Notes under the pieces: generated by a model | What the model saw: only the letters and a program-made list of their open reading frames with translations | Database searches by the model: none | What the model was told of the DNA's origin: nothing | Sequence record: KC710998 | Direction: 5' to 3' (one strand) | Length of the DNA: 51,821 nt | From: Shigella phage pSf-1 | In this document: positions 2,784 to 45,834 of the stretch, piece by piece | Layout of the letters: each line of letters opens with the position of its first letter | How positions within the stretch are numbered: the first letter of the stretch is position 1 | Made by a program: the position numbers and the translations under genes

Positions 2784-2826
2784 TAGCATTTTTTGTTAAA
2801 CGATGATTTAATGATTGTGTATTATA
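2784..2826 (+). promoter_or_regulatory. conserved promoter cassette (variant ATAGCATTTTTTGTTAAAC + 18 nt + TATTAT) upstream of helicase
   Basis: member of repeated motif family; spacing and -10-like hexamer conserved. Confidence 0.5.
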
Positions 2827-2858
2827 CACGCCAAATGGCATTACTCAAAGGTTTTAGA

Positions 2859-4541
2859 ATGATTCCAAACATTGAAAAGCAAATATCAGCACTTGGTGAA
2901 GCGGTAATTAAATCCATTCAGGAGCGATTCACTGTTGGCGATATTGTGCCTTACCCTTACCAGTGCGTTGCATACGCTGAGATCGCAAAGCGTATGAAAA
3001 ATTATGAGCATCCATTCTTTGTTAAAGCGTCCGTATCGGCTGGCAAAACATTGGTGTTTGCAATGGTTGCTCACCAGTGCCGGAAAATGGGCTTGAAAAT
3101 GATGGTCCTTGCTCGCCAGGCTGAGATTGTGGGTCAGGATTCTGAAGAGATAACAAATCTTGGTGTGCCGAACTCCATCTATTGTGCAGGACTGAAGACA
3201 AAAAGCGCATACTTTCCGATCGTTGTTGGTTCTGAGGGAACTGTAGTTAATGGACTGTTTAAAGCGCTTGGCGACTATGTTCCGCACGTTATCGGGATTG
3301 ACGAGTGTCACCAGGTGGATTGGGAAGACCTTGCCGACGCAATAGACAAAGACGAATCATTTTTGCAAATGACGACGAAGAAAGGCGAAAAAGTACCAAA
3401 TCCAGATTATGACATAACAAAGGGAAGCAGGAACAGAAATACAGAGTTCCTGATTGGTGAAGATGGCTTGCCAATGGAGGGAACAGGCCGCACACAATAC
3501 ACTGTCATTATCATGGAAATGATGCGACGTTGCAGGAAAGCATATGGCCATGAACTGCGCATATTTGGCATGACTGGATCGGAGTTTCGCGGCGTAGTCC
3601 CGATCCTGGTAGAAGACAAAAAACAAAAAGGATTCTGGCGTGAACAGGTTACTAATATTGACACCAACTACCTGATCAAATTCGGTTCTGTTGTGCCAAC
3701 AAATTTTGGCGACGTTGGCGATCTAGGGTATGACCTTTCAGAGTTTGAGGCATCCAGCGAGGATGGCGTTGCAGACTTTGACGCTAAAACGCTTCGTAGG
3801 ATGGAACAAAAAATTCATGAAGAAGCGACCATGACAAAGCGCATCATGGCAAAAGTTCACGAGATCTGTAAAAACCGCAACGGCGTACTTGTGACATGTG
3901 CAGGAGAAAGGCATTGCAAAGAGGCAGCGGCAGCGTTGCCACCTGGAACTACTTACAGGATCATTACTGGTAAGACTGGCGACAATCAGCGCAAGGAGTG
4001 GTTGAGGGAAGCATACGAAGGGAAGGTAAAATACATCTTCCAGGTTCAGGCGCTAACAACTGGCGTTAACGTTCCGTTTTGGGATACGTCGGTTATATTG
4101 CGTAAGATTGGATCTCTTACGTTGCTGATTCAGCTTTTAGGGCGCGGAATGCGACTACTTAAGAAGTGGCATAAGGAGCAAGGATTCCAGAAAGATGATC
4201 ATCTCGTCATGGATTTTTCAGGAACGATGGACGAGTTAGGGGAACTTTATTTTGATCCGATACTGGAACAGGCGCAACATCAGAAGCGATTCAGGAACGG
4301 TAAAGATCCGAAGCCTTGTCCTGTTTGCGGAACTCTTAATAGCTATTATGCTCGTCGTTGTATGCACGTAGACGAAAACGGCAACAGATGCGAGTGGTTC
4401 TTTAAATTCAGGACATGCGATGATCAGATTGACCCGCGCACTAAAAAGATTATTCATCGCGGTTGTGGAACGAAAAATGATATTGCGGCCAGGGTGTGCA
4501 GACATTGCGACATGTCATTGATTGACCTAACGAGAAGTTGA
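2859..4541 (+). CDS. SF2 (DEAD/DEAH-type) DNA helicase with C-terminal zinc ribbons
   Basis: Walker A VSAGKT, GIDECHQ (DExH box), C-terminal CPVCG...CRHC; start chosen at ATG 2859 downstream of promoter cassette (track ORF starts 2793). Confidence 0.7.
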   Translation: MIPNIEKQISALGEAVIKSIQERFTVGDIVPYPYQCVAYAEIAKRMKNYEHPFFVKASVSAGKTLVFAMVAHQCRKMGLKMMVLARQAEIVGQDSEEITNLGVPNSIYCAGLKTKSAYFPIVVGSEGTVVNGLFKALGDYVPHVIGIDECHQVDWEDLADAIDKDESFLQMTTKKGEKVPNPDYDITKGSRNRNTEFLIGEDGLPMEGTGRTQYTVIIMEMMRRCRKAYGHELRIFGMTGSEFRGVVPILVEDKKQKGFWREQVTNIDTNYLIKFGSVVPTNFGDVGDLGYDLSEFEASSEDGVADFDAKTLRRMEQKIHEEATMTKRIMAKVHEICKNRNGVLVTCAGERHCKEAAAALPPGTTYRIITGKTGDNQRKEWLREAYEGKVKYIFQVQALTTGVNVPFWDTSVILRKIGSLTLLIQLLGRGMRLLKKWHKEQGFQKDDHLVMDFSGTMDELGELYFDPILEQAQHQKRFRNGKDPKPCPVCGTLNSYYARRCMHVDENGNRCEWFFKFRTCDDQIDPRTKKIIHRGCGTKNDIAARVCRHCDMSLIDLTRS

Positions 4542-4903
4542 GCGGAAAGCACTACACAAAAAACGACTGGTTCAAGGTGCAATCTTTCTCGGTTGACATA
4601 ACGAAAAACCAGAAAGGGATAATATTTAATTATGAGCTTTCCGATGGCATGGACACTTTCAGGGCGAGAGAGATATTTTTCCCTGAATCTGAGAGCCAAA
4701 TTTGCCGCGCAAAATGGCGAAGCGTTGCTCTTAAGCACATACCAGATCGCCGCGTTGCTGGCATGGTGGCGAGCTATCGTAATGCACGAAAAATAATGCA
4801 ATATGTGAATCACATTATGCCGCCATCGCGTGTGACTCACCGCAAGACTAGCAAGGGTGAAGATAATTTGTACAAGAAGGACTTTAATTATGGCAATAAC
4901 TGA
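4538..4903 (+). CDS. hypothetical protein (TTG start overlapping helicase stop)
   Basis: ORF track; no recognisable motif; start uncertain. Confidence 0.3.
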   Translation: MSGKHYTKNDWFKVQSFSVDITKNQKGIIFNYELSDGMDTFRAREIFFPESESQICRAKWRSVALKHIPDRRVAGMVASYRNARKIMQYVNHIMPPSRVTHRKTSKGEDNLYKKDFNYGNN

Positions 4904-5309
4904 TAAAGGCGATTATCTGGAGTTTTACGAAAGAGATCCGACGGATACGCTAAAAGAGGAATCACACCAGATTGGGGCGTTTCAATGGTTAACTTATGCT
5001 CATCCTGAATTTCTTGCCTGGCATACGAAAAATGAGGGAGAAAAGGGTATCGCTACCGCAATGATGGATCAGCAAGCTGGACTCGTTAAGGGCGTAAGTG
5101 ATTTTATCATCCTGATTGGATTAAAAGGCCGTTACCCATTCGCGGCTATTGAGATGAAACGCGTCAATAAGTCTGGCAAGGGCAAGGCTTCACCAGTCAG
5201 CAAGGAGCAAAAAGCCTTCTTGCGCCGTGTGCGTGAGCTTGGCGGATTCGCTGCCGTAACATACGGATATAAGCAATTCATGATCGCGGTAGAATACATG
5301 ATGAAATAG
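4890..5309 (+). CDS. VRR-NUC domain nuclease (PD-(D/E)xK)
   Basis: KGVSDFIIL...IEMKR motif pattern typical of VRR-NUC; ATG 4890 with AAGGA RBS. Confidence 0.6.
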   Translation: MAITDKGDYLEFYERDPTDTLKEESHQIGAFQWLTYAHPEFLAWHTKNEGEKGIATAMMDQQAGLVKGVSDFIILIGLKGRYPFAAIEMKRVNKSGKGKASPVSKEQKAFLRRVRELGGFAAVTYGYKQFMIAVEYMMK

Positions 5310-5349
5310 CACTTTTTGTTAAAACAGGCGCGAAGGATTGCGCCATAAT
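5306..5349 (+). promoter_or_regulatory. conserved promoter cassette (ATAGCACTTTTTGTTAAAAC + hairpin spacer + CATAAT)
   Basis: motif begins at stop codon TAG of upstream gene; spacer GGCGCGAAGGATTGCGCC is an inverted repeat. Confidence 0.55.
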
Positions 5350-5383
5350 AACACCAGTTCAACAAGCAACAGGTAATTAAGAA

Positions 5384-6085: not shown

Positions 6086-6088
6086 AAC

Positions 6089-6329
6089 CATGCAAAAAGA
6101 AAGAAGCGTTTATTTAAATGAAACTGGCGAATGGTTGTTATTTCGCGCTATGGTTTGCGAAGCGATTGATAAAAACGAGTTCGTAAAACCGCTATTAGGT
6201 TGCGATCCGTGGGAGTTTACAAGCGCGCTTGATATGAGTTTTGAGGAAACAAGAAAACTACCGCTTGAAAAATGGCATGAGCAGATCGGTAAAGACTTGC
6301 AAGAGTTTTACGAATCCGCGTCAAAATAG
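6089..6329 (+). CDS. hypothetical protein
   Basis: ATG 6089 with GGAG RBS; ends in TAG that is part of next promoter motif. Confidence 0.45.
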
Positions 6330-6370
6330 CACTTTTTGTTAAAACGCCCGGCCTTGTGTCGGGCATAATT
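6326..6370 (+). promoter_or_regulatory. conserved promoter cassette
   Basis: ATAGCACTTTTTGTTAAAAC + GCCCGGCCTTGTGTCGGGC hairpin + ATAATT. Confidence 0.55.
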
Positions 6371-6401
6371 TTTTCATCAAAACGAACAAGAGGAAAATAA
6401 A

Positions 6402-6581
6402 ATGGTTGTTTACGATCCACGCGCTTTTAAAATTGCTCAAGAAGTTTCACGCGAATCTGTTGCTGGCGGTTCGGTTAACGGCTATCAGTTTGATTGGTCG
6501 GCAGCAATGACCCTGCTTAAGGTTGCATATGGTCACGCGCCAATTGAAACAGCGGAGGAATATTATAAGCATGAAGGTTGA
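6402..6581 (+). CDS. hypothetical small protein (59 aa, below ORF-track cutoff)
   Basis: ATG 6402 with AGAGGA RBS immediately after promoter cassette and CATCAAAACGAAC leader. Confidence 0.4.
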   Translation: MVVYDPRAFKIAQEVSRESVAGGSVNGYQFDWSAAMTLLKVAYGHAPIETAEEYYKHEG

Positions 6582-9512: not shown

Positions 9513-9543
9513 TTTTAAAATCCTCATATTCGTTTCGATGAAA

Positions 9544-9588
9544 CAAATATACCGATACGAGATCGGGAGTTTTAACAAAAAGTGCTAT
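9544..9588 (-). promoter_or_regulatory. conserved promoter cassette (minus strand)
   Basis: reverse-complement motif GTTTTAACAAAAAGTGCTAT, 17 nt spacer with CCGAT/ATCGG inverted repeat, TATATT, CATCGAAACGAA leader. Confidence 0.55.
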
Positions 9589-12203: not shown

Positions 12204-12230
12204 TGGTGATAACTCCTTTTTGATGCGGCA

Positions 12231-12274
12231 ATAATACCGCACCAATGCTACCCGCATTTAACAAAAAATGCTAT
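12231..12274 (-). promoter_or_regulatory. conserved promoter cassette (minus strand, variant ATAGCATTTTTTGTTAAATG)
   Basis: motif + 19 nt spacer + TATTAT upstream of DUF3987 gene. Confidence 0.5.
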
Positions 12275-12874: not shown

Positions 12875-12904
12875 CGTTTATTTCTCCTTTCGTTTCGGTG
12901 AAGT

Positions 12905-12949
12905 GATTATGCCAGGTTTTGCACCTGGCGTTTTAACAAAAAGTGCTAT
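12905..12949 (-). promoter_or_regulatory. conserved promoter cassette (minus strand)
   Basis: 44-nt core identical to the plus-strand cassette at 17701..17744 (includes hairpin GCCAGGTGCAAAACCTGGC). Confidence 0.55.
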
Positions 12950-14273: not shown

Positions 14274-14303
14274 TATGCAATCCTCATTATATTTGGTGTG
14301 ATA

Positions 14304-14346
14304 ACTATACCAGGTTTGAGAAATATTGTTTAGCAATTCGTGCTAT
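14304..14346 (-). promoter_or_regulatory. conserved promoter cassette (minus strand, variant ATAGCACGAATTGCTAAAC + TATAGT)
   Basis: same variant upstream half as cassettes at 19381 and 21896. Confidence 0.5.
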
Positions 14347-14923: not shown

Positions 14924-14954
14924 TTTTAAATCCTCGTTCGTTGTCGATGCGCTT

Positions 14955-14998
14955 AATATACCAATCAGAGGCGCATCGGTTTTAACAAAAAGTGCTAT
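14955..14998 (-). promoter_or_regulatory. conserved promoter cassette (minus strand)
   Basis: motif + spacer, TATATT enclosed by 8-bp inverted repeat CGATGCGC/GCGCATCG. Confidence 0.55.
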
Positions 14999-15427: not shown

Positions 15428-15460
15428 TTTCAAATCCTCGCTTTCGTTGTCGATGTGTGT

Positions 15461-15504
15461 AATGTACAGGAATACGAGGATTGAGTTTTAACAAAAAGTG
15501 CTAT
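15461..15504 (-). promoter_or_regulatory. conserved promoter cassette (minus strand)
   Basis: motif + 18 nt + TACATT + CATCGACAACGA leader. Confidence 0.55.
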
Positions 15505-16299: not shown

Positions 16300-16337
16300 T
16301 TGCTTTCTCCTGATGGGTATCTCGTTTCGATGCGTGT

Positions 16338-16381
16338 AATGTACCCGATCAGGATGATTCAGTTTTAACAAAAAGTGCTAT
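16338..16381 (-). promoter_or_regulatory. conserved promoter cassette (minus strand)
   Basis: motif + 18 nt + TACATT + CATCGAAACGAG leader. Confidence 0.55.
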
Positions 16382-16974
16382 TTCTCAACTGGCGATTATT
16401 CCAACTATTCCATTAATCAGGAATAACAAGAATAACTCATTCGCGATCACCTGGATTGTGAGACTTTGAGTTTGGTCAATTTTAATCAAGTGATTAACTT
16501 TTTGTGTGGAGGGGATAGAGAAACGCGGCCCTCTTGCGTCCTTTCCGGCAATCCTGGCGCGCGCAATTGTTATCTTCTGTTATCGCTGTTATGCGTGTTA
16601 TTCCGGCGTGGAATCGCATAACAAAAAATAACAAGAAAAATCCATATAACATACTAAAAAATAAGGATTATTTATTTATATGTATCTATAAATTATTATC
16701 TGTTATGTGTGTTATGTGGGCGTATTGATACCAGATGTATTTTGGTGATTGTATGTGGTTGTGTGTTGGCTTGTATGTATATATGGGGTGGGGCGTATCC
16801 GCGCATTTTTAGATAACACGCAAAAACAACATTGATTTATAAGGAAAAGAACATGAATTTTGTTTCGTTCTTGAAACACAACATTGAAAAACTGCCAATA
16901 ACAATTAAAAACAGTTGACACGCCAGGAATGGTAAATGATAATGCAGCCACTGAATCACGAGGGGGGATAAAGC
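16382..16974. repeat. noncoding AT-rich island with TGTTAT/ATAACA iterons and TG-rich repeats (candidate origin or regulatory hub)
   Basis: four direct TGTTAT copies at 9-10 bp phasing (16568-16601), three ATAACA copies (16618-16651), TGTTATG x2 (16701-16715), GTGATTGT/TGTATGT repeats; no ORF of 60 aa or more. Confidence 0.6.
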
Positions 16975-17292
16975 ATGAGTGAGTCTGTGTTTACAAATGA
17001 GCTTCGCAAGGTTGCAATTGCTCTAGCCACTGGAGTACATGAATCTATCCAGATACCTGAAAGATGGGTAAGGCAGCACCTGGAGGGCAAGAAGTCAGCC
17101 AGCAACGCCGGATCATATCTGCGTCAGATTATGGGGCGCGTTCCAGAAGTGGCGGAGAAGGGGCGAGTTTCAGTATCAAAGAAACCTTACGGCCCTGATA
17201 GCGAATACTTCGGCGAAAATTACTTTGATGTGTCGATTGTTAATGCGCCGAATCGCAGGGTTTACAACAAGGCCGCGCTTGAGAAGCTGTAG
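16975..17292 (+). CDS. hypothetical protein (first gene of plus-strand early cluster)
   Basis: ATG with GAGGGGGGA RBS; a second frame stays open past the stop (possible indel). Confidence 0.45.
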   Translation: MSESVFTNELRKVAIALATGVHESIQIPERWVRQHLEGKKSASNAGSYLRQIMGRVPEVAEKGRVSVSKKPYGPDSEYFGENYFDVSIVNAPNRRVYNKAALEKL

Positions 17293-17445
17293 CGAAAGCA
17301 AAGCGCCAGGTTGCTGAGTCAATGCTTAAAGTCTCACCAAGCCTAGCGAACTACTCGCCAGATGAATATGAAACACTTGCTAAGGCGATCGCAGATTTTC
17401 ACGCGATCATTAAAGAAACATACCTTAACGATGAGGAACAATAAA

Positions 17446-17700: not shown

Positions 17701-17745
17701 ATAGCACTTTTTGTTAAAACGCCAGGTGCAAAACCTGGCATAATA
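17701..17745 (+). promoter_or_regulatory. conserved promoter cassette
   Basis: ATAGCACTTTTTGTTAAAAC + GCCAGGTGCAAAACCTGGC hairpin + ATAATA + CATCGAAACGAG leader. Confidence 0.55.
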
Positions 17746-17776
17746 ACCTCATCGAAACGAGATTGAGGAAAACAAA

Positions 17777-17962
17777 ATGGCACGTCGCATCACCAAAGAC
17801 CTTAAAGTCCTGAACAAAGAAAACGTAGTTAAAATCCTGGTTATCTGGGGATACAACGAAGAAACAGCAAAGCAGAAGGTAGAGGCAGGTTATGACATGG
17901 CTGTAAAAGCAATGCCAAACGACGACGCCAAAGGTATTGCAAACTATGTAGCTTTCTTTTAA
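17777..17962 (+). CDS. hypothetical protein
   Basis: ORF track; GAGGAA RBS. Confidence 0.45.
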   Translation: MARRITKDLKVLNKENVVKILVIWGYNEETAKQKVEAGYDMAVKAMPNDDAKGIANYVAFF

Positions 17963-18163: not shown

Positions 18164-18208
18164 ATAGCACTTTTTGTTAAAACTCGAAAACGATAACCAG
18201 GCATAATA
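18164..18208 (+). promoter_or_regulatory. conserved promoter cassette
   Basis: motif + 19 nt + ATAATA. Confidence 0.55.
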
Positions 18209-18261
18209 AATCACATAGGGCGGCACGGCGTCGCCCAAAAAACCAATCAGGAGAAAGCACC

Positions 18262-19155
18262 ATGTTAAAACTTGCTGACATTAAATTCCCGATCACTTTC
18301 GAATCTCGTGGCGTTGGTCATTACATTTTTACCGATGAGAAAACATGCCATAACGTTTGGTTGCACAGCGATAAGCCAAGCCCATCAACAATGGAGATTC
18401 AGCACTTCATTGATGCGCATAATCAGCACTACAACTCAATCCGTGACTACGGCTACGCAATGCCAGGCTACACATGCTTGCACTACAAGCCATATAAGGG
18501 CCAGGTGTTACCAGTGCGCTCACCGGAACGCGCAGAGATTCCGATGGTCAATATGAAAACCTGCGACTACAAAAAGCTGTGGTGCTTAAGTCTGGAAAAT
18601 ATCAAGTATCCGATCACGTTCCACACGACTGGTAAGTCAACGATTCGCTACACATCGCGCGACAATGGCGTTTATAGCGATGGTACGAAATCAGAGTTGA
18701 AAGTTGATTTCTTTGTCAATGGTCACAACAAATTCAATCCGCACAACGAAGAGGATAAAGTGTATTACGTGGAAGACATTACAAAACACTTGTTTGGAGA
18801 AACTCCATTCGGCGGCGGGAAGACGGCAATTCAGAAAATCATTGGCGAGGAGATCCATAAAGCGGCTGTCGAAATGAAAGCGCCTGGAGGCTGGCGTATT
18901 GACAAGAGCGCCTTTGCCTATCAAGAAATCGTAACGCAGGGCGCGATTGAAGATATGCCAGTTAAAGCCACGCTAAAAGGAGTCCGGCTTGATGACGGCA
19001 GTTGGTATGAATTAACGGCTACACCAAAGACGATCGAAATTCATGATGATGTTGTTATCCTTCTGCTTCACTACGGCGGCACTAAAAACCGGACTGTTGC
19101 AGGTGAGATCAGCATCAAGCGCGGAACGATGGTTAAGTGGAAGGTGAAGATTTGA
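18262..19155 (+). CDS. hypothetical protein with internal tandem duplication
   Basis: two similar segments (ADIKFPITFESRGVGHY... and ENIKYPITFHTTGKSTI...); AGGAGA RBS. Confidence 0.5.
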   Translation: MLKLADIKFPITFESRGVGHYIFTDEKTCHNVWLHSDKPSPSTMEIQHFIDAHNQHYNSIRDYGYAMPGYTCLHYKPYKGQVLPVRSPERAEIPMVNMKTCDYKKLWCLSLENIKYPITFHTTGKSTIRYTSRDNGVYSDGTKSELKVDFFVNGHNKFNPHNEEDKVYYVEDITKHLFGETPFGGGKTAIQKIIGEEIHKAAVEMKAPGGWRIDKSAFAYQEIVTQGAIEDMPVKATLKGVRLDDGSWYELTATPKTIEIHDDVVILLLHYGGTKNRTVAGEISIKRGTMVKWKVKI

Positions 19156-19231: not shown

Positions 19232-19384
19232 ATGGCTACCTGGATTTTGCTGATTCTTATGATTGATGGCGGCGTTGACCATATCGAAATGAATAGCCAG
19301 CAATCTTGCATTGAGGCACGAGAGCAGATCAAGAACAACAACAGGTTTTATGCGTACACTCACACGCTATGTATTAAGAAATAG
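19232..19384 (+). CDS. small membrane protein (50 aa)
   Basis: MATWILLILMIDGG... hydrophobic N-terminus; GAGGTGAGAG RBS; stop TAG lies in next promoter motif. Confidence 0.35.
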   Translation: MATWILLILMIDGGVDHIEMNSQQSCIEAREQIKNNNRFYAYTHTLCIKK

Positions 19385-19423
19385 CACGAATTGTTAAAAC
19401 TCAAATGTGGGGCCAGGTATAAT
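19381..19423 (+). promoter_or_regulatory. conserved promoter cassette (variant ATAGCACGAATTGTTAAAAC + TATAAT)
   Basis: TATAAT lies in loop of GGCC...GGCC inverted repeat. Confidence 0.55.
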
Positions 19424-19453
19424 GGCCTCACTTTCAACGAAGGGGATAAAACG

Positions 19454-19684
19454 ATGTACGTTAACAAGAAGATGAAATGCGTTTCCGTTGGCTATGGTTT
19501 CACTGGCATGTTCAAGCCTGGCGAAATCTATATGGCGCAAAAGTTGAAATCATCAACCGGATCTTTTTACGTCAGCAACAGCAAAGGGCATCGCATGTTC
19601 CTGAACGGTGGTGAAGGCACTAAGGTTATGGCGCACGCTATGGTGATTGCTGAATTTGAGGAAGTGAAAGATGGAAACAAATAA
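19454..19684 (+). CDS. hypothetical protein
   Basis: ATG 19454 with AAGGGGA RBS; track ORF 19391..19684. Confidence 0.45.
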   Translation: MYVNKKMKCVSVGYGFTGMFKPGEIYMAQKLKSSTGSFYVSNSKGHRMFLNGGEGTKVMAHAMVIAEFEEVKDGNK

Positions 19685-20443: not shown

Positions 20444-20601
20444 CCTGGTTACTTTTAATCTTTGTCACAAGTTACAACTCCGCCGCTATTGAATCGCAAG
20501 AGTTCCACGGCGAATCAAGGTGTCAGGAAGCACGAAAACAAGTTGTTCTCCACATGTCAGATAGTGGGAAAGATGTAACAGCGCTATGCGTTCGTAAGTA
20601 G
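20440..20601 (+). CDS. small protein with N-terminal hydrophobic segment (53 aa)
   Basis: ATGA overlap with phosphatase stop; stop TAG lies in next promoter motif. Confidence 0.3.
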   Translation: MTWLLLIFVTSYNSAAIESQEFHGESRCQEARKQVVLHMSDSGKDVTALCVRK

Positions 20602-20641
20602 CACTTTTTGCAAAAATAGATTGTCGGGCTTGCGGTATAGT
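20598..20641 (+). promoter_or_regulatory. conserved promoter cassette (variant GTAGCACTTTTTGCAAAAAT + TATAGT)
   Basis: TATAGT in loop of GGGCTT/AAGCCC inverted repeat; CCATCGACAACAAACGAGGA leader. Confidence 0.5.
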
Positions 20642-20672
20642 AAGCCCATCGACAACAAACGAGGATTAAATC

Positions 20673-20783
20673 ATGGCTAACAAGATCGAGTTTTTTAAAG
20701 CGGTAGACAAGATTGATGCGCGCCAAGTTTCTTTGCTATCCAGTCAATTGACGGTGAGGATATGGCATACAACGTTATCATAG
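20673..20783 (+). CDS. hypothetical small protein (36 aa; may be fused with next ORF if an indel is present)
   Basis: ATG with GAGGA RBS after cassette. Confidence 0.3.
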   Translation: MANKIEFFKAVDKIDARQVSLLSSQLTVRIWHTTLS

Positions 20784-21308: not shown

Positions 21309-21899
21309 ATGAAACGCGACATTATCATTCTTAACGGGCCGCCAGGAGTTGGCAAAGATACGCTTGCGGCATACTTAACGGGCCATCGTTACGCAGCGGT
21401 TAAAGCGTCATTTAAACAGCCTATGTTCGATATTGCATTCTCCATGCTTGGCGTTTACCGATATGACGAGTTCATTGATCTGTATAACGACCGCGAGCAG
21501 AAAGAAAAGCCTCAAGCAATCTTGCAAGGTAAGTCGCCGCGACAATTCATGATCTGGATTAGTGAAGAAGTCATGAAGCCAGCTTTTGGCAAGCAATATT
21601 TCGGAAATCGCATGGTTGAGCAAGTACACGAGATGTACAGAGATTTGGCTGTTGTAATTAGTGATGGCGGATTCCCTGAAGAAATCAAGCCGCTCGTTAA
21701 GGCAGGCCATGAGGTGCACATTTGCCGACTGCATCGCGAAGGCTTCACGTTTGATGGCGATTCACGAAACTATATTGACCTGAGCGGATACCATCACCGA
21801 GTCAATCATTACGACTTCACAATGATTGATGGCGAGCCAGAAAAGACTGTTGAAGAGATCATCAAAACGGTGCAGTGGAAACACACAAAGATTGAATAG
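21309..21899 (+). CDS. P-loop nucleotide/polynucleotide kinase
   Basis: Walker A GPPGVGKDT near N-terminus; start ATG 21309 with GGAG RBS (track ORF from 21294). Confidence 0.55.
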   Translation: MKRDIIILNGPPGVGKDTLAAYLTGHRYAAVKASFKQPMFDIAFSMLGVYRYDEFIDLYNDREQKEKPQAILQGKSPRQFMIWISEEVMKPAFGKQYFGNRMVEQVHEMYRDLAVVISDGGFPEEIKPLVKAGHEVHICRLHREGFTFDGDSRNYIDLSGYHHRVNHYDFTMIDGEPEKTVEEIIKTVQWKHTKIE

Positions 21900-21939
21900 C
21901 ACGAATTGCTAAAAGCGGGGCGCAATGCCTCGCTATAAT
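21896..21939 (+). promoter_or_regulatory. conserved promoter cassette (variant ATAGCACGAATTGCTAAAAG + TATAAT)
   Basis: TAG of kinase stop codon inside motif. Confidence 0.55.
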
Positions 21940-21969
21940 GCAAACACCAATCAACGAGAGGAAATCATC

Positions 21970-22371
21970 ATGGTAGAGTTAAACGACATTCGCGTTGGAA
22001 CAAGATTTCGCGTAACCTGGGCAGATGAAAATTGCGGCGTTAGTAAGGGGCAGGTTGTTACGGTGGATAGTATTTATCGCGGATACAGCAAAGACTTTCG
22101 CCGACCACGCATCAAGAATGGCTATATCATTACTCGACGTTTTGGCTTTGAGTGTTATTGCGTAGTGGCTACTCAAGGAGTTTTGATTGAGCTTCAGCGA
22201 ATCAGCGATCATCGCGGCTGTCATGTTAAGACAATGAAAGCACCATTTCAGCGAGCGCGATACGATGCGCGACGGATGCGCCGACTTGCTCGAAATGCGT
22301 TCAAGTTCAAAAAGCCTGGCAGTGATTTTTACGGCATGTACAAAAGGATTGCGCGAAATGCTGGGAAATAA
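21970..22371 (+). CDS. hypothetical protein (basic C-terminus)
   Basis: ATG 21970 with GAGAGG RBS; track ORF 21925..22371. Confidence 0.45.
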   Translation: MVELNDIRVGTRFRVTWADENCGVSKGQVVTVDSIYRGYSKDFRRPRIKNGYIITRRFGFECYCVVATQGVLIELQRISDHRGCHVKTMKAPFQRARYDARRMRRLARNAFKFKKPGSDFYGMYKRIARNAGK

Positions 22372-22950: not shown

Positions 22951-23238
22951 ATGGCTAAAAGCAATCGTAAAATGTTGATTAACGCATTCGAAAAGGCGGC
23001 GCTTGAGCGTGGTTGGAATGACTCATTTCACACGGCAAACTGTATCCGCCGTTACGGATTCAAGAATTGCCGCTCATGGGCGCGTGAAATGGCTTCATGG
23101 TATGATCTTGATGCGCATTACCTTGATATGGATTGCGCCCTGGTTGAAATGATTGAGCAGGCCGCATTAGAGGATCGACCATTAACGCAATCTGATTTTG
23201 ACGATTTTGTTCGCGATGAAATCTATTACATGAGCTAA
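22951..23238 (+). CDS. hypothetical protein
   Basis: AAGGAGGAAA RBS preceded by UUCG-loop hairpin. Confidence 0.45.
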   Translation: MAKSNRKMLINAFEKAALERGWNDSFHTANCIRRYGFKNCRSWAREMASWYDLDAHYLDMDCALVEMIEQAALEDRPLTQSDFDDFVRDEIYYMS

Positions 23239-23280
23239 TAGCACTTTTTGTTAAAACTTCCGCGAGGGCATTTGTTAAAG
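23238..23280 (+). promoter_or_regulatory. conserved promoter cassette (with TAAAGT -10-like)
   Basis: motif overlaps TAA stop/TAG; CATTGAAGCGAAACAGAGGA leader. Confidence 0.5.
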
Positions 23281-23313
23281 TGTCCTCATTGAAGCGAAAC
23301 AGAGGAAATCAAA

Positions 23314-23526
23314 ATGAAAATTCGAATCACCAGGGTTGACATTGACCGCAACGACGGAAGCATTACCCTTGAGCAATGCGGGTTCAAAGTTGGTGACATT
23401 GTAGAGGTTGACGGATTCTTTCGTGATGGTTCTTACTGCGTGTTAGCAATCCGCAACACGGAAGAAATTCGAATCGGTGATAACATCGGCGTAAACCATG
23501 ACGAATGCGAGGTAGTAGAGGAATGA
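23314..23526 (+). CDS. hypothetical protein
   Basis: ORF track; AGAGGAAA RBS. Confidence 0.45.
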   Translation: MKIRITRVDIDRNDGSITLEQCGFKVGDIVEVDGFFRDGSYCVLAIRNTEEIRIGDNIGVNHDECEVVEE

Positions 23527-25574: not shown

Positions 25575-27142
25575 TGCTGATTTGGGAAGACTTAACAGCG
25601 GCGCAAAAGCGCGCCGTTAAGGAAATGAGCGAATATTCATTCGAAAAGATGATCCGCATTTGGTTTCAACTTCTCCAGGGGCAAAGGTTCTTGGGAAACT
25701 GGCATTTCAGTTACCTATGCAGCGAAGTTGAAAAAATCATCAAAGGCGAGTCACAGAATGTAATTTTCAACATAACGCCAGGCAGTGGTAAAACAGAGAT
25801 ATTCTCGATCCACATGTCACCTTATGCGTCATTGAAAAGTAAGAAGGTGCGAAATCTTAATCTTTCGTTTAGTGATGGCCTTGTCCAGCAGAATAGCAAC
25901 CGCATCAAAGAGATTATTGGTTCTCCAGAATGGCAGGAGCTATGGCCTGGAAAGCTGGCAAAGGCGAGCGCAAAGGATTTGATTGTAACAGATGGCGGCA
26001 AGGTTAAATTACAAGTCAACTCGCGTTCTATTGGTGGTCAGGTTACTGGTCTGCGTGGCGGATACATGGACGATGGATTTACTGGTATGCTGGTTCTTGA
26101 TGATCCAGACAAACCGGATGACATGCTTTCTAAGGTGAAGCGCGAAGCCGGACACATGCGCCTAAAGAACACGGTGCGATCGCGTCGAATGAAAGACACT
26201 ACGCCAATTGTGATGGTTCAGCAACGTCTACACGTCAATGATTCAACGTGGTTCATGACAAACGGCGGTATGGGCGGCATCCAGTTTAAGGTGGTAAGTA
26301 TTCCGGCGCTCGTTACTAAGGAATACCGCGAAACGCTTCCTGATTGGTTAAAGCCTGAGTTTGATCGCGATGTTTTGTCCAGTAAGCCAGTGATGATTGA
26401 TGGTGTTGCTCATTATTCGTTCTGGCCTGCTAAGGAAAGCGCGGAGGAATTACTTGCACTTCGAAATGCTGATCCGTACACGTTCGCCAGTCAGTATCAG
26501 CAACAGCCTGTTGCGCTTGGTGGTAACGTGTTTAAAACAGAGTGGTTCCAGTATTACGGCAGCAGCGAGAAATGCACGCTACCAAAACCGGATCGCTTTG
26601 AATATACATTTATCACGGTTGATACCGCGCAGAAAACAGGTGAGCTTAACGACTACTCCGTGATCTGTTATTGGGGGATGTATAAAGATCGTGTCTACTT
26701 CATTGATGGCGTTCGCGGAAAATGGGAAGCACCGGACCTTGAGACGAATTTTGTTGCATTCGTTAATCAGTGCTGGAAGCGCAATAAAGAATGCGGAACG
26801 TTGCGAAGGATTCATGTTGAAGATAAATCATCTGGCACTGGCTTGATTCAGAGTGCAGCGAAAAAAATCATGATCAAGATCAATCCCGTTCAGCGCGATA
26901 AAGACAAGGTTACGCGAGCAATGGACGCAGCGCCAGTAATGCGCGCCGGACGCGTAGCACTTCCAGAATCCCATCCTATGCTGGCTGAGATACTAGCTGA
27001 AGTTGCGGCGTTTACATTCGATGATAGCCATCCTCATGATGATATTGTTGATAACATCATTGATGCGGTTAACATTGAAATGAACATGGCAGATGATCCG
27101 GTTGGAAGAATGAAAAAATTGGCAGGTTTGCGGAACAAATAG
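25574..27142 (+). CDS. terminase large subunit
   Basis: Walker A ITPGSGKTE, 522 aa, follows TerS. Confidence 0.7.
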   Translation: MLIWEDLTAAQKRAVKEMSEYSFEKMIRIWFQLLQGQRFLGNWHFSYLCSEVEKIIKGESQNVIFNITPGSGKTEIFSIHMSPYASLKSKKVRNLNLSFSDGLVQQNSNRIKEIIGSPEWQELWPGKLAKASAKDLIVTDGGKVKLQVNSRSIGGQVTGLRGGYMDDGFTGMLVLDDPDKPDDMLSKVKREAGHMRLKNTVRSRRMKDTTPIVMVQQRLHVNDSTWFMTNGGMGGIQFKVVSIPALVTKEYRETLPDWLKPEFDRDVLSSKPVMIDGVAHYSFWPAKESAEELLALRNADPYTFASQYQQQPVALGGNVFKTEWFQYYGSSEKCTLPKPDRFEYTFITVDTAQKTGELNDYSVICYWGMYKDRVYFIDGVRGKWEAPDLETNFVAFVNQCWKRNKECGTLRRIHVEDKSSGTGLIQSAAKKIMIKINPVQRDKDKVTRAMDAAPVMRAGRVALPESHPMLAEILAEVAAFTFDDSHPHDDIVDNIIDAVNIEMNMADDPVGRMKKLAGLRNK

Positions 27143-27172
27143 CACGAATCGACAAACCAATATATAATCAAA

Positions 27173-27195
27173 GGCTGGAAAATCCAGCCTTTTTT
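27173..27195 (+). terminator. hairpin + T-run between terminase and portal genes
   Basis: GGCTGGA-aaa-TCCAGCC + T6; preceded by ATAGCACGAAT...TATAAT partial cassette. Confidence 0.4.
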
Positions 27196-27210
27196 ATTGG
27201 AGGAAAGATA

Positions 27211-28490
27211 ATGAGTAAATCACGAATCGTTAAGGCTGATGGCTATAACGAGATCTTTAAAGGCGAGAATTGCAAATCGCGAGTAGAGCAACCATTCTAC
27301 ATGCAATCAATGCCATACAAGACACTTGCTGACTTTTACGAAAAAGACGGCCTGGCAAAAAGGGTTATTGACGTAGTACCAGAGGAAATGGTTTCCCCTG
27401 GCTTCACGGTTGACGGCGTGGCAGACGAGGCAGCATTCCGTTCTTTGTGGGATGAGAAGCGATTGAATGCAAAAATTATTGATGCGCTTTGCTGGTCGCG
27501 TTTGTTTGGTGGATCTGCAATCATTGCTCTTGTTCAGGATGGGCGAGCGCTCAAATCACCTGTAAAGCCTGGTGCCATGTTGGAGGATGTGCGAGTTTAC
27601 GATCGCTATCAGATTCGCGTTGAAGCGCGCGAAACTAATCCACGCAAGGTTCGCTATGGTGAGCCAGTGCTTTACACTGTAACGCCAGGCGGAGACTTGC
27701 CGGAATACCAGGTACACTACACGCGAGTTTGCATTATCGACGGTGAGCGGATACCTAACGCAAAGCGACGCAGCAATGATGGCTGGGGTGAGTCAGTTCT
27801 TAACAAGCGACTTGTTGAGGCTATTGTTGATTATAACTATTGTGAAACATTGGCAACGCAATTATTGCGGCGGAAGCAACAGGCGGTATGGAAGGCTAAA
27901 GGACTCGCTGACTTGTGCGATGATGAAGAAGGTGTTAGCGCGGCACGTCTGAGGCTTGCGCAGGTTGACGATGAGGCGGCGTAGGCAGGGCCATTGGTAT
28001 TGATGCTGAGGATGAGGAATATGATGTTCTTAACTCTGACATTAGCGGCGTTGATTCTTTTCTGGAAAAGAAAATGGATCGCATCGTTTCCCTTTCAGGT
28101 ATTCATGAAATCATCCTGAAAAATAAAAACGTTGGCGGAGTTAGCGCAAGCCAAAACACGGCGCTTGAAACATTCTATAAGCTGATTGAACGAAAACGCG
28201 TTGAGGATTACAAGCCTATTCTTGAATTTCTATTGCCGTTCATCATTAGTGAGCAGGAGTGGAGTATTGAGTTTTCACCTTTGAGCGTACCTAGCGATAA
28301 AGATCAGGCTGAAATTCTGAATAAGAATATCGACTCAATCAGCAAGGCTATTGATGGTCAGTTCCTTGATGTTGAAGAAGCGCGCGACACGTTGCGAGCA
28401 ATCGCCCCAAGCGTTAAACTAAAGGACACTAATAAAATCAAGCTGCCGGAGCCAACTGAGCCGGAGCCAGGCACGCAGGGGAATGAGTAA
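27211..28490 (+). CDS. portal protein (apparent frameshift near 27970-27985)
   Basis: two adjacent track ORFs (27211..27984, 28074..28490); second frame is open back to about 27975, so one indel joins them; position between TerL and head morphogenesis gene. Confidence 0.5.
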
Positions 28491-31374: not shown

Positions 31375-31392
31375 CACAAAATTATGTTGCAC

Positions 31393-31411
31393 GTTTAACA
31401 AAAAATGCTAT
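31393..31411 (-). promoter_or_regulatory. orphan copy of conserved motif in reverse orientation upstream of capsid gene
   Basis: GTTTAACAAAAAATGCTAT on + strand; no minus-strand gene downstream. Confidence 0.4.
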
Positions 31412-35152: not shown

Positions 35153-35173
35153 CTTTTAACAAAAAGTGCTATC
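35153..35173 (-). promoter_or_regulatory. orphan copy of conserved motif in reverse orientation upstream of tail chaperone gene
   Basis: CTTTTAACAAAAAGTGCTATC on + strand, 13 nt before ATG 35186. Confidence 0.4.
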
Positions 35174-44543: not shown

Positions 44544-44547
44544 TGCA

Positions 44548-44572
44548 AAGGGGGCTTTTGCCCCCTTTTTTA
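44548..44572. terminator. bidirectional rho-independent terminator between convergent genes
   Basis: GGGGGC-tttt-GCCCCC flanked by A-run and T-run. Confidence 0.65.
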
Positions 44573-45535
44573 ATACATATTTGGAGTGAATGGTATAGGC
44601 ATTGAAATATTTATATTAAATGGAAATTGAGCGCCGCTCTGAGTAGAATAGTTACCTACCCTTGTTCCTGGGGTACTTCTTACGTTGCCACCACTCATGC
44701 ATACGCCCTTGTATCGAATGTTATTATATCCACCCGTAACTCTACATATTGTACCTGTTCTCAGTATTGGGAAAAATCCACCGCACCACTGCCAACCATC
44801 ATTTATCGCCATAGTCCCGCCAAGAACAAAAGGACGTCTAACGCTTGAGAAAACTATCTGACCAGCAGGATTGCTCATAGTGATTCCTGGTCCTGGAGGT
44901 GGTGGAGTGTTATTAAATATTACGAGTTGCACGTATACGCTCGCGCCAACGTCATCAATTCCGTTATAGTTTGCATCTCTGCACCATATCGTGTTGCCGT
45001 CAGATTCCAGAGTTACGTTTGGGTTATCCCACATTCCGAAAGGAACACCCTGGACTGGCAACTGAGCCTGACCGTTAACCTGGATTCCTCCAACAAATGC
45101 CGCGCTCATTAACCTGGCGTTGTTCGGTATTGATGCAAAGTCCGTTGAGTCGCTAACAAGTATCCCCTGATTACCCGCCTGAGCGGGGAGTATTTCGTAG
45201 CAGTTGCCGTAAAACCTCATTCTCCTTCCCCTGCTCCCGTTAAAATTACCTACCGTTATTCGACCAGTTGCGTCATTTACCTTTTGAAAGCTGGTTAAAT
45301 AATAAACTTCCGGTATGTAATCCATATCGTCGATATAAACGGCTTGAGATGGAAGGCAAAAAGCCGTTGATCCTGGACTCATTTGCAAACCAAAATCAAA
45401 TACTGATCCAGATGAATCAACTCCGTCGGCTTGTATAGGTCCACACCATGATGGGGCGCGAAGTCCCGATGTTATCTCCATTGCCGGACGACCGTCATTT
45501 AGGTTTATATATATTCCCTGCCCCATAATTACCAC
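44570..45535 (-). CDS. putative receptor-binding protein (inference from context)
   Basis: 321 aa, Gly/Asn/Ser-rich; co-oriented with and directly downstream of lipoprotein gene; convergent with J. Confidence 0.35.
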   Translation of the reverse strand: MVIMGQGIYINLNDGRPAMEITSGLRAPSWCGPIQADGVDSSGSVFDFGLQMSPGSTAFCLPSQAVYIDDMDYIPEVYYLTSFQKVNDATGRITVGNFNGSRGRRMRFYGNCYEILPAQAGNQGILVSDSTDFASIPNNARLMSAAFVGGIQVNGQAQLPVQGVPFGMWDNPNVTLESDGNTIWCRDANYNGIDDVGASVYVQLVIFNNTPPPPGPGITMSNPAGQIVFSSVRRPFVLGGTMAINDGWQWCGGFFPILRTGTICRVTGGYNNIRYKGVCMSGGNVRSTPGTRVGNYSTQSGAQFPFNINISMPIPFTPNMY

Positions 45536-45759
45536 TCTTTAGTTTTGATTGATACCTTGCCGCTAAAGTTGCCCTGGACGTCATCGGATGACAGACCTTT
45601 GAATCGCATATCTATTTCGCCAGCCGGAATCTTCTGACCATCAACTAATCGCACCATGCAAGATCCGTAAGTGTAAGTAACACAGTCGCCATTTTTAAGA
45701 TTCTGAGCACAACCAGTCAGGGCAACGGCTGCAATCAAAACGGCGATTAACTCTTTCAT
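45529..45759 (-). CDS. small lipoprotein, Llp/Cor-like superinfection-exclusion candidate
   Basis: signal peptide + lipobox LTGC at residues 14-17; 76 aa; AAGGAG RBS. Confidence 0.5.
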   Translation of the reverse strand: MKELIAVLIAAVALTGCAQNLKNGDCVTYTYGSCMVRLVDGQKIPAGEIDMRFKGLSSDDVQGNFSGKVSIKTKEW

Positions 45760-45790
45760 CTTGGTATCTCCTTCGTTGTTGTTGGTTGCA

Positions 45791-45834
45791 ACTATACACG
45801 ATCTTGCGGTTGGCGTTTAGCAAAAAGTGCTATT
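45791..45834 (-). promoter_or_regulatory. conserved promoter cassette (minus strand, variant ATAGCACTTTTTGCTAAAC + TATAGT)
   Basis: motif + 18 nt + TATAGT + CAACAACAACGAAGGAG leader. Confidence 0.55.

Follow-up and report, generated by a model that had tools for sequence, protein, structure and literature searches.

Shigella phage pSf-1, a T1-like phage (Drexlerviridae, Hanrivervirus type), carries a recurring promoter unit that precedes about 20 of its genes. The unit opens with a 20-base block that is, judged from its sequence, a near-perfect predicted binding site (marbox) for MarA, SoxS and Rob, the stress and antibiotic-resistance activators of the host. The phage probably borrows these activators to switch on its non-structural genes. 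The repeat as such is known already; the new part is the identity of the block as a marbox.

Distribution of the unit in pSf-1

The 20-mer ATAGCACTTTTTGTTAAAAC occurred 10 times exactly and 16 times with up to three mismatches in the window (the whole 51,821-nt stretch of record KC710998), against 0 in 100 shuffles. A looser scan returned 22 boxes, with about 0–1 expected by chance. It recovered, on both strands, all 17 copies listed in an earlier note (plus strand: 2783, 5306, 6326, 17701, 18164, 19381, 20598, 21896 and 23238; minus strand: 9569, 12255, 12930, 14327, 14979, 15485, 16362 and 45814) and added five more, at 2293 (minus, before the primase gene), 47322 (plus), 27139 (plus), 31392 (minus) and 35153 (minus). 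The description of a standardised promoter-plus-leader unit with a sigma70-type –10 was supported, including the placement of a –10-like hexamer after about 18 nt (gap of 17–18 nt in the window copies). That orientation matches the downstream gene was true of 19 of the 22 boxes, but two minus-strand orphans oppose their flanking genes. [quoted passage not shown]

The same element was published in 2024 for phage TLS as aaATAGCACnnnTTGnTAAAA, with its role left open (PMC11447400). These 21-nt intergenic direct repeats, also noted in T1, Rtp and Rogue1, lie about 76 nt upstream of start codons along the direction of transcription and fall into A, T and G subgroups (PMC11447400). A stoperator, an enhancer site or an UP element were the candidate roles put forward by the TLS authors, who reported only three box-free sigma70-consensus promoters (PMC11447400). 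The marbox, the fixed –10, the hairpin and the stop-codon overlap described here for the pSf-1 unit are not mentioned in that paper. The cassettes and two neighbouring features are as follows.

2241–2312, minus: primase cassette; box 2293–2312 AAAGCACTAATTGCTAAAAA (overlapping the 3' end of the Cro-like regulator gene), gap 18 nt, TATCAT; ATG 2240; 2 marbox mismatches; absent from the earlier list
2296–2769, minus: Cro-like HTH regulator gene (157 aa)
2783–2858, plus: helicase cassette; box 2783–2802 ATAGCATTTTTTGTTAAACG, gap 17 nt, TATTAT; DNA helicase ATG 2859; 1 marbox mismatch; –10 region common to the divergent sigma70-type promoter of the Cro-like regulator
5306–5383, plus: Dam methyltransferase cassette; exact 20-mer, gap 18 nt, CATAAT; ATG 5384; upstream VRR-NUC gene ends at the TAG within the box
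6326–6401, plus: cassette of 59-aa ORF 6402–6581; exact 20-mer, spacer hairpin, CATAAT then TTTTTT (terminator-like)
9513–9588, minus: cassette of 73-aa ORF 9512–9291; exact 20-mer, gap 17 nt, TATATT, leader TCGAAACGA; hairpin CCGATCTCGTATCGG plus T-run, terminator-like
12204–12274, minus: second helicase cassette (527 aa, ATG 12203); box ATAGCATTTTTTGTTAAATG
12875–12949, minus: cassette of 128-aa ORF 12874–12488; exact 20-mer; spacer identical to the copy at 17701
14274–14346, minus: cassette of 75-aa ORF 14273–14046; G-type box ATAGCACGAATTGCTAAACA, TATAGT; 0 marbox mismatches
14924–14998, minus: cassette of 64-aa ORF 14923–14729; exact 20-mer, TATATT, leader CATCGACAACGA; –10 enclosed by stem CGATGCGC/GCGCATCG
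15428–15504, minus: cassette of 50-aa ORF 15427–15275; exact 20-mer, TACATT, leader CATCGACAACGA
16300–16381, minus: cassette of 90-aa ORF 16299–16027; exact 20-mer, TACATT; first leftward one of the divergent early region
16915–16943, plus: predicted box-free sigma70 promoter; TTGACA-17-GATAAT, near-consensus; before the first rightward early gene (DUF7174)
17701–17776, plus: cassette of the DUF7421 gene (17777–17962); exact 20-mer, CATAAT, leader CATCGAAACGA
18164–18261, plus: cassette of 297-aa ORF 18262–19155; exact 20-mer, CATAAT; longer leader (ATG at box position 99), extra GC hairpin
19381–19453, plus: cassette of 76-aa ORF 19454–19684; box ATAGCACGAATTGTTAAAAC, gap 17 nt, TATAAT
20598–20672, plus: cassette of 36-aa ORF 20673–20783; degenerate box GTAGCACTTTTTGCAAAAAT, TATAGT, leader CATCGACAACAA; 3 mismatches
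21896–21969, plus: cassette of 133-aa ORF 21970–22371; G-type box ATAGCACGAATTGCTAAAAG, TATAAT
23238–23313, plus: cassette of 70-aa ORF 23314–23526; exact 20-mer, TAAAGT
45760–45833, minus: cassette of 76-aa ORF 45759–45529; box ATAGCACTTTTTGCTAAACG, TATAGT; 0 marbox mismatches
47322–47402, plus: cassette of 92-aa ORF 47403–47681; A-type box ACAGCACAAATAGCTAAACA, TATAAT; between the ExoVIII and Erf genes; absent from the earlier list

By its position after the tail genes, ORF 45759–45529 corresponds to the T1 Cor superinfection-exclusion gene, gene positions having been compared with JakobBernoulli (hypothetical protein) and T1 (Cor).

Anatomy of the cassette

Counting from the first box base as position 1, the box (1–20) would occupy –50 to –31, with GCAC (4–7) as recognition element 1 and TAAA (15–18) as recognition element 2. 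An 18-bp GC-rich spacer would lead to the –10 hexamer at 39–44, with G at –14, and a C-rich 6-nt discriminator to a start predicted at the A of the conserved CA (position 51). The 5' UTR that follows, rich in A and C, would measure about 25 nt, often contain AUCGA(C)AACGA, and run through GAGGA to the ATG near position 76.

Across 455 unique cassettes family-wide, the gap between box and –10 is 18 nt in 71% and 17–19 nt in 82%, and CA is conserved at –1/+1 in 67%; the –35 is absent, and the –10 scores well above a control region. In most window copies the ATG lies at box position 72–78, with outliers at 82–83 and 99. The leader turned out weaker than first described: CATCGA[AC]AACGA is exact in only two copies, and a leader resembling ATCGA(C)AACGA (up to two mismatches) accompanies about half of the unique cassettes family-wide. 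The CATCGAAACGA leader is only semi-conserved.

The block matches the marbox consensus in sequence and geometry

The E. coli marbox/soxbox/robbox consensus is AYNGCACNNWNNRYYAAAYN (PMC2064960), and 20 of the 22 window boxes match it with 0–1 mismatch. The motif extends to related phages, with 13–21 boxes of at most one mismatch per genome in seven Drexlerviridae genomes versus about 1 in shuffles; a lambdoid control phage had 0 such boxes. The 20-mer is identical in T1, Hanrivervirus, Webervirus, Jhansiroadvirus and a Pantoea phage. It matches the robbox of E. coli micF, ACAGCACTGAATGTCAAAAC, at 15 of 20 bases, the other five being degenerate positions, and a Klebsiella-phage copy shares 17 of 20 with the mar marbox. 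Positions outside copy selection also obey the degenerate code (A/T at position 10 in 97% and C/T at position 14 in 92% of the 455 unique cassettes), and position 19 has the A of micF. Conservation of the phage box goes beyond what the code demands: TT at positions 11–12 is unexplained by it, and A at position 3 is accounted for only by the use of TAG as a stop codon.

[quoted passage not shown] In E. coli K-12, we measured a gap from box to –10 of 18 nt at micF, sodA and nfo, and of 18 ± 1 at fumC. Since the phage unit likewise combines a forward box, an 18-nt gap to the –10 and no –35, it is predicted to be a class II MarA/SoxS/Rob-type promoter. The earlier note had rightly held that the upstream block is not a –35 hexamer, and the architecture is that of an activator-dependent promoter. 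The note's further proposal of a phage-specific transcription factor or an RNAP-modifying protein was not supported: the block matches a host MarA/SoxS/Rob site at near-consensus level and has precisely the class II geometry seen in micF and similar host promoters.

Could RNAP contact the block directly through its alpha-CTD, as a factor-independent, UP-element-like enhancer? The idea was raised by the TLS authors (PMC11447400), and the box does carry a T-run and an A-run upstream of a –10 that lacks a –35. We consider it very unlikely, however, as the most invariant bases, GCAC and TTG, are foreign to the A/T-rich UP consensus, and the T-run is wholly absent from the G-type boxes (CGAATTGC). 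Moreover, UP elements occupy –59 to –38, not the approximately –50 to –31 spanned by the block. A sigma54-type promoter (TGGCAC-N5-TTGC), hinted at where the TLS authors refer to enhancer-binding sequences and superficially resembled by TAGCAC-N3-TTGT, deserves almost no credence: it is already contradicted by a spacing 2 bp too short, AG stands in place of GG, a sigma70 –10 is conserved 18 nt downstream, and no enhancer-binding protein is encoded.

Hairpins and orphan boxes

Hairpin potential around the –10 averaged –10.3 kcal/mol versus –4.9 in block-preserving shuffles and was lower in 87% of cassettes. About one quarter of the hairpins sit in the spacer, 37% of those being followed by a T-rich tract, and several cassette hairpins are annotated as terminators in the T1 record. 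The inverted repeat that brackets the –10 probably serves to insulate the transcript arriving from upstream or to make it more stable. Three orphan boxes in the late region do not fit the promoter model and count against the main reading:

27139–27158, plus: ATAGCACGAATCGACAAACC; its TAG ends the large terminase gene; an intrinsic terminator hairpin comes next, with no –10
31392–31411, minus: 47 nt upstream of the major capsid gene ATG (31458); no –10 found at promoter spacing; orthologous reverse boxes in T1 (15086, minus) and Motto (5727, minus)
35153–35172, minus: 14 nt upstream of the tape-measure chaperone ATG (35186); directly downstream of a terminator and of TTACTG-18-CATAAT; orthologous reverse box in T1 (18850, minus)

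The significant hairpin potential, the spacer hairpins with their T-rich tracts and terminator annotations, and the orphan boxes that lack a –10 (two lie in 5' UTRs) would suit a unit that acts mainly at the RNA or elongation level, as an intercistronic terminator, processing site, stabiliser (hairpin plus box) or stoperator-like roadblock and not in initiation. We regard this as improbable, because three promoter elements (–10 hexamer, G at –14, CA start) are conserved at constant distances, most hairpins (151 of 267) enclose the –10 and lack a U tract, no Rfam family matches the cassette, and the block's identity as a marbox would be left unexplained. RNA processing, an alternative offered in the earlier note, is unneeded to explain the block, but the hairpin leaves room for an RNA-level or termination role as an added function, compatible with the class II promoter reading.

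Host activators or a phage protein as reader of the box

We think it reasonably likely, from sequence evidence, that the predicted class II marbox promoters are read by host activators of the MarA/SoxS/Rob family. Six family genomes, translated in all six frames and searched with a MarA/SoxS/Rob/RamA profile, yielded no AraC-type domain (best E = 0.8; controls AraC 1e-14 and Rns 7e-8), which favours a host reader. So does the Cro-like regulator, the only transcription regulator conserved across the family (823 phage records): its fold is that of Cro, and whereas single positions of its hypervariable recognition helix hold as many as 16 different residues, the box does not change from genus to genus.

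A phage-encoded reader, whether this regulator or another early or virion-delivered protein, would be a class II-type activator like Mu Mor/C or T4 MotA, the marbox likeness being convergent or coincidental; we hold this to be unlikely. The family-wide regulator gene adjoins a box located in its own 5' UTR, which would suit autoregulation; Cro-type proteins, however, bind as dimers, and the box has no dyad symmetry. Three core proteins lack a recognisable domain, but no non-structural core protein is highly conserved (81% identity at most across four genera). A cascade could begin from a few box-free sigma70-consensus promoters; the predicted promoter at 16915–16943 (plus), the top –35/–10 match of all intergenic sites, would drive the first rightward early gene, DUF7174, but this gene is not universal. 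Finally, a 20-bp marbox match together with the exact 18-nt class II spacing is very unlikely to arise by chance (about 1e-5 per position).

A Keio screen with the TLS-like phage LL5 picked up mutants in which plating falls about 20-fold or more, and rob, marA and soxS did not appear in that set (PMC7229145); therefore, no single factor is essential. This outcome speaks for a phage reader, and redundant activators, basal activity of the promoters or read-through could also account for it. Unstressed cells contain little MarA or SoxS. Rob, for its part, is mostly kept sequestered unless an inducer is present (PMC9178005). That family phages nevertheless grow well in plain broth counts against host reading. 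The same boxes also occur in family members labelled Vibrio, Pseudomonas or Campylobacter phages; if right, these labels would favour a phage-encoded reader, but they are doubtful (GC 44–45%, some records marked UNVERIFIED). No published transcription-start mapping for a T1-like phage was found in the literature.

Proposed mechanism and closest known systems

On the host-reader hypothesis, the cassette would be a class II (activator overlapping the –35) sigma70 promoter whose upstream 20 bp form a marbox, the asymmetric site for the monomeric AraC/XylS-type activators MarA, SoxS and Rob (RamA in Klebsiella and Salmonella). The forward-bound activator would substitute for the missing –35 by contacting the alpha-CTD and region 4 of sigma70, in the way seen in cryo-EM complexes of Rob and of RamA with micF, and host RNAP would thereby be recruited to about 19 phage promoters. 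These would serve two helicases, the primase, Dam, recombination genes, the Cor-position ORF and many small accessory genes. Rob would be the likeliest factor in unstressed cells because it is constitutively abundant; its role would pass to MarA, SoxS or RamA when bile, salicylate or oxidants stress the cell, or in mar/sox/ram mutants. The unit is also a compact gene-boundary module, its box giving the upstream gene stop codons in two frames.

The E. coli class II promoters (micF, sodA, nfo and fumC) share with the cassette a 20-bp asymmetric box with GCAC and YAAA elements, placed forward over the –35 position (PMC9178005, PMC8811837), as well as the 18-nt gap to a sigma70 –10 and the lack of a usable –35. 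Whereas host sites are degenerate and single, the phage has about 20 near-consensus copies, predicted from sequence, in a 52-kb virulent genome. Its box doubles as the upstream stop codon, its –10 is bracketed by an inverted repeat, and its leader and ATG distance are standardised.

The promoters of Mu Mor/C and T4 MotA/AsiA likewise combine a good –10 and no –35 with a conserved box at or abutting the –35, the activator contacting sigma region 4 and the alpha-CTD. Their activators are phage-encoded and their boxes unrelated in sequence; by contrast, the pSf-1 box matches the site of a host regulon, and no phage protein that would fit it turned up. The PeSL (promoter-early stem-loop) cassettes of T4-type phages, reportedly described by Arbiol et al. 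in 2010, are also standardised units of a strong promoter plus a stem-loop between small non-essential genes, and are candidate recombination junctions for modular shuffling. Unlike the pSf-1 unit, they have activator-independent sigma70 promoters with a –35; in pSf-1, the stem-loop lies inside the promoter. Homology breakpoints were only about 3-fold enriched at the pSf-1-type cassettes, on small numbers.

Genome layout of pSf-1

The window covers nearly the whole genome of a T1-like siphovirus of the Hanrivervirus type (Drexlerviridae, Tempevirinae). Phages ESh4, PGN590, herni, vojen, and JakobBernoulli share ~92% DNA identity with it over 75–86% of a 10-kb early region. The large terminase has a 100% identical counterpart in an unverified Hanrivervirus record, and the gene order agrees with that of JakobBernoulli and T1.

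Gene blocks of the pSf-1 genome
1.3–9.3 kb: replication, Dam, and lysis genes
9.3–16.4 kb, minus strand: small early genes, leftward arm of a divergent pair
17–25 kb, plus strand: small early genes, rightward arm of the same pair
~25.5–44.5 kb, plus strand: structural genes
46–49 kb: recombination genes

The divergent early arms are separated by ~600 bp of AT-rich, non-coding DNA (16380–16975) dense in short TGTTAT/ATAACA-type repeats. As the counterpart of the genome ends in the T1 record, this segment may function as an origin or in packaging. At 16915–16943, a near-consensus sigma70 promoter (TTGACA-17-GATAAT), the top −35/−10 match among intergenic sites, drives the DUF7174 gene (16975–17441). 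We noted that this gene is split by a frameshift, with residues 1–119 in one frame and 104–156 in another, and that the essential portal gene (27211–28487) is also split, near 27975–27985, into two frames that are 98% identical to the JakobBernoulli portal. Together, the two frameshifts suggest sequencing indels in the source.

A cassette repeated between genes

Each cassette comprises a conserved 20-mer (hereafter the box, with its first base as position 1), a spacer, a −10 hexamer, a leader, a Shine-Dalgarno sequence, and an ATG. The 20-mer has ten exact matches in the window and 16 at three or fewer mismatches, while shuffled sequences gave none. A looser pattern retrieved 22 copies, namely all 17 positions listed in an earlier note on this sequence together with 2293(−), 47322(+), 27139(+), 31392(−), and 35153(−). 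The claim that each copy points toward its downstream gene holds for 19 of the 22. A −10-like hexamer does follow the box, as had been described, 17–18 nt downstream in the window copies, although a few of these 17- versus 18-nt spacings may be wrong by one owing to the suspected source indels. The ATG falls at box positions 72–78 in most of the 19 gene-facing copies. The leader is unusually long in the cassette at 18164, whose ATG is at box position 99, and 18214–18255 adds a GC-rich hairpin (GGGCGGCACGGCGTCGCCC) followed by an A-run.

To extend these measurements, we used a family set of 455 unique cassettes from the window, T1, JakobBernoulli, and 120 IMG/VR fragments. In this set, 18 nt separate the box from the best −10 hexamer in 71% of cassettes and 17–19 nt in 82%; a G at −14 and a CA at −1/+1 are also conserved. 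The leader CATCGA[AC]AACGA, proposed earlier as part of the conserved unit, is exact in only two window copies but recognizable in about half of the cassettes family-wide, including those of Klebsiella phages, and is thus semi-conserved rather than invariant. Linked box subtypes occur at positions 8–10 and 14 (TTT/T, GAA/C, TTT/C, and TAA/C), with equal spacing in all; they may be affinity classes that set the firing order. The cassettes at 12930–12949 and 17701–17720, on opposite strands, have identical spacer, hairpin, and −10 (gccaggtgcaaaacctggCATAAT), which suggests a recent duplication or gene conversion of the whole cassette.

The observation of a repeated intergenic unit is therefore confirmed, and the repeat itself is already published. 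The 2024 re-annotation of phage TLS described 18–21 intergenic repeats, aaATAGCACnnnTTGnTAAAA, noted similar repeats for T1, Rtp, and Rogue1, speculated about stoperators, enhancer sites, or UP elements, and gave the function as an open question (PMC11447400).

The conserved box matches the marbox

The marbox (also soxbox or robbox), the binding site of the host activators MarA, SoxS, and Rob (and RamA), has the consensus AYNGCACNNWNNRYYAAAYN (PMC2064960). As a 20-bp asymmetric box, 20 of the 22 window copies match it with no or one mismatch. A scan with the generic AYNGCACNNWNNRYYAAAYN alone found 13–21 matches per genome in seven family members (Tunavirus T1, two Hanrivervirus, two Braunvirinae, a Klebsiella Webervirus, and Motto), compared with ~1 in shuffles and none in a lambdoid control phage; the boxes are hence present in related phages, where the earlier note had proposed to look. 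The internal structure agrees as well. Marbox A and B sites have been described (PMC9178005), and the phage boxes carry the recognition elements GCAC and YAAA 7 bp apart with an A/T preference between them. GCAC is found in 94% of copies (GCAT in 6%) and TAAA in ~95%. The copies also follow the degenerate code at two positions that had no part in their selection, with A or T at position 10 in 97% and C or T at position 14 in 92%. Moreover, the 20-mer is identical at 15 of 20 positions to the micF robbox of E. coli K-12 (ACAGCACTGAATGTCAAAAC), all five differences lying at degenerate positions, and one Klebsiella-phage copy is identical to the mar marbox at 17 of 20.

Three other readings of the block were rejected. 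An UP element would be A/T-rich, lie at about −59 to −38, and lack specific G/C bases, whereas the block occupies −50 to −31 and keeps GCAC and the G of TTG invariant. A sigma54 promoter (TGGCAC-N5-TTGC) needs a distance of exactly 10 bp between GG at −24 and GC at −12; the actual sequence, TAGCAC-N3-TTGT, is 2 bp too short and has AG in place of GG. As a −35 hexamer, TTGTTA would need a 22-bp spacer, and TTAAAA at 18–19 bp is weak. Mycobacteriophage stoperators, which are asymmetric, promoterless sites inside transcription units bound by a phage repressor, share the orientation bias but differ in that 19 of the 22 phage copies have a −10 at a fixed distance; moreover, the phage's Cro-like regulator (described below) is an improbable reader of the box. 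Rfam returned no match for the unit.

Box position and spacing resemble class II promoters

In class II promoters, a forward marbox overlaps the −35 with its center near −41, and the activator touches both the alpha-CTD and sigma70 region 4, pushing the latter off the −35 (PMC12052159, PMC8811837, PMC9178005). The phage boxes lie forward over the −35 at a set distance from the −10, with 19 of 22 facing a gene and an 18-nt gap in 71%. At micF of E. coli K-12, exactly 18 nt lie between the box and TAGAAT; for sodA and nfo the best upstream forward consensus match also has its −10 at 18 nt, and for fumC at 18 ± 1 nt. Host class II promoters (micF, sodA, and nfo) thus share the 18-nt gap with the phage cassettes, which are without a −35. 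By sequence, orientation, and spacing, the phage unit reads as a putative class II promoter of the MarA/SoxS/Rob type. Such a promoter would be bound by MarA, SoxS, or Rob and depend on the activator, and its predicted start is ~7 nt past the −10, at the A at box position 51.

Literature searches on the 20-mer, on marboxes in phages, and on Drexlerviridae with MarA, SoxS, or Rob returned nothing relevant, and a search for transcription-start data for T1-like phages found none. As far as the searchable literature shows, the marbox identity and the class II geometry are unreported.

Which protein reads the box

We searched six-frame translations of six family genomes for AraC-type domains with a profile built from MarA, SoxS, Rob, and RamA (these four sequences, and the two controls AraC and Rns, were entered by hand). 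No such domain was found in the six genomes (best E = 0.8), while the same profile detected AraC at 1e-14 and Rns at 7e-8. A tblastn search for a MarA-like protein of the phage gave a weak hit (E = 0.22) in ORF 16975–17292 (DUF7174), which was taken as chance; this ORF has few homologues, lacks conservation in T1 or Webervirus, and is frameshifted in the window.

The sole transcription regulator conserved family-wide is the 157-aa product of 2296–2769(−), present in 823 phage records. Sequence and predicted fold both mark it as Cro-like (pLDDT 86.6; best PDB match by Foldseek, 3bd1), and its predicted structure, a Cro fold rather than a MarA fold, led us to reject it as a MarA-type protein. 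As many as 16 different residues occur at one position of its hypervariable recognition helix, yet T1, Hanrivervirus, Webervirus, Vc1, and Pantoea phage AAS23 carry the identical 20-mer despite the diverged helix. Across four genera, no non-structural core protein exceeds 81% identity. An invariant 20-bp site alongside fast-diverging phage proteins makes conserved host activators the more plausible readers. The earlier note's view of a promoter was right in outline, but its phage-specific factor is probably wrong, given the missing AraC-type protein and the hypervariable helix of the Cro-like regulator. On sequence grounds, we consider it somewhat probable that the box is read by host Rob, MarA, or SoxS, or by RamA in Klebsiella. 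Rob is constitutively abundant and would therefore be the likely default reader.

Several points count against a host reader. First, Rob is mostly sequestered without inducers (PMC9178005). Second, family members labeled as Vibrio, Pseudomonas, and Campylobacter phages carry the same boxes. The Drexlerviridae records concerned (MG065636, ON843697, and NC_054898, with host labels Campylobacter, Pseudomonas, and Vibrio, respectively) have the same marbox cassettes. However, the Vibrio- and Pseudomonas-labeled records have an E. coli-like GC content of 44–45% and the Campylobacter-labeled record is marked UNVERIFIED; the host labels are hence doubtful, and these phages give no clean phyletic test. 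Third, in a Keio screen with the TLS-like phage LL5, rob, marA, and soxS were not among the genes found, and entries for the three are absent from the supplementary table (PMC7229145). Fourth, the box shows more conservation than the marbox code demands, in part for a reason given below.

We also tentatively entertain, at slightly less than even confidence, a broader possibility: that the Drexlerviridae, virulent phages of enterobacteria, have ceded control of their non-structural programme to host MarA, SoxS, Rob, or RamA, so that the stress or resistance state of the cell would set phage expression and the boxes could titrate the activators. If so, bile, salicylate, oxidants, or mar/sox/ram mutations, including clinical ones, would directly set phage gene expression and be tied to phage success. 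The ~20 high-affinity boxes per replicating genome could dampen the host response by titration, and T1-like phages would find multidrug-resistant over-producers of the activators altered as hosts in a predictable way. This would bear on phage-antibiotic combinations and on the choice of Drexlerviridae for therapy against multidrug-resistant Enterobacterales, and would offer ~20 natural, near-optimal class II marbox promoters for the study of MarA, SoxS, and Rob. If correct, this would be the first case known to us of a lytic phage family whose early and middle promoters mostly rest on a host regulon for stress and antibiotic resistance. The marbox reading also gives a direct, testable answer to the question stated for the T1-like repeat (PMC11447400).

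Orphan boxes and divergent promoters

Three boxes in the late region stand without a cassette.

Orphan boxes
27139, plus strand: its TAG ends the large terminase gene; followed by a terminator, not a −10
31392–31411, minus strand: reversed, directly upstream of the ribosome-binding site of the major capsid gene
35153–35172, minus strand: reversed, directly upstream of the ribosome-binding site of the tape-measure chaperone gene

At 27139–27200, a clean intrinsic terminator (AGGCTGGaaaatCCAGCCTTTTTT) comes after the box, ahead of the portal ribosome-binding site. T1 has boxes at both reversed positions as well, and Motto has one at the capsid position. The helicase box (2783–2802) has the same reversed placement relative to the gene of the Cro-like regulator, in whose 5′ UTR it lies. 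In this region (2770–2860), the marbox promoter of the helicase lies face to face with the divergent promoter of the regulator (TTGAGT-16-TATAAT, minus strand), and the two have one palindromic −10 region (TATTATA) in common. The arrangement looks conserved in T1, where the box at 36444 is 13 nt from the regulator ATG on the other strand, appears similar at the KpCol1 box at 5639, and could act as a switch. From these reversed placements, a bound activator could favor one or the other of two divergent promoters, or serve as a roadblock.

Stop codons, hairpins, and gene shuffling

The upstream ORF ends at the TAG of box positions 2–4 in 11 of the 22 window copies; over six genomes, this holds for 48 of ~120 copies. 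The TAA at positions 15–17 is the stop codon in about ten more, and the box is thus a gene terminus in two reading frames. Stop-codon use accounts for position 3, an N in the marbox code, being A in 98% of copies, and explains in part why the box is more conserved than that code demands.

Positions 21–56 fold at −10.3 kcal/mol versus −4.9 kcal/mol in block-preserving shuffles, and are lower in 87% of cassettes. We relied on energy tests because covariation in a fixed register was weak, as stem registers vary among copies. The −10 hexamer sits inside the stem in 151 of 267 cassettes, one arm being in the spacer and the other in the discriminator up to +4; such stems have ~10.6 pairs and are without a U tract. 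In 71 cassettes the stem lies within the spacer, a T-rich tract following 37% of those, and several spacer stems are annotated as terminators in T1. Our best guess, held with low confidence, is that the hairpins would insulate the unit from read-through transcripts of the upstream gene or stabilize them. With their excess hairpin energy and flanking ORFs of 36–130 aa, the cassettes resemble T4-type PeSLs, which place a promoter and a stem-loop between small genes, and an insulating or stabilizing role would be alike in both.

Under the marbox reading, the cassette would be a compact unit that combines stop codon, promoter, and leader, and it may drive the shuffling of genes among these phages. 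Homology breakpoints between relatives fell inside cassettes in 3 of 19 and 4 of 25 cases, against 1.1 and 1.4 expected, an approximately threefold excess on small numbers.
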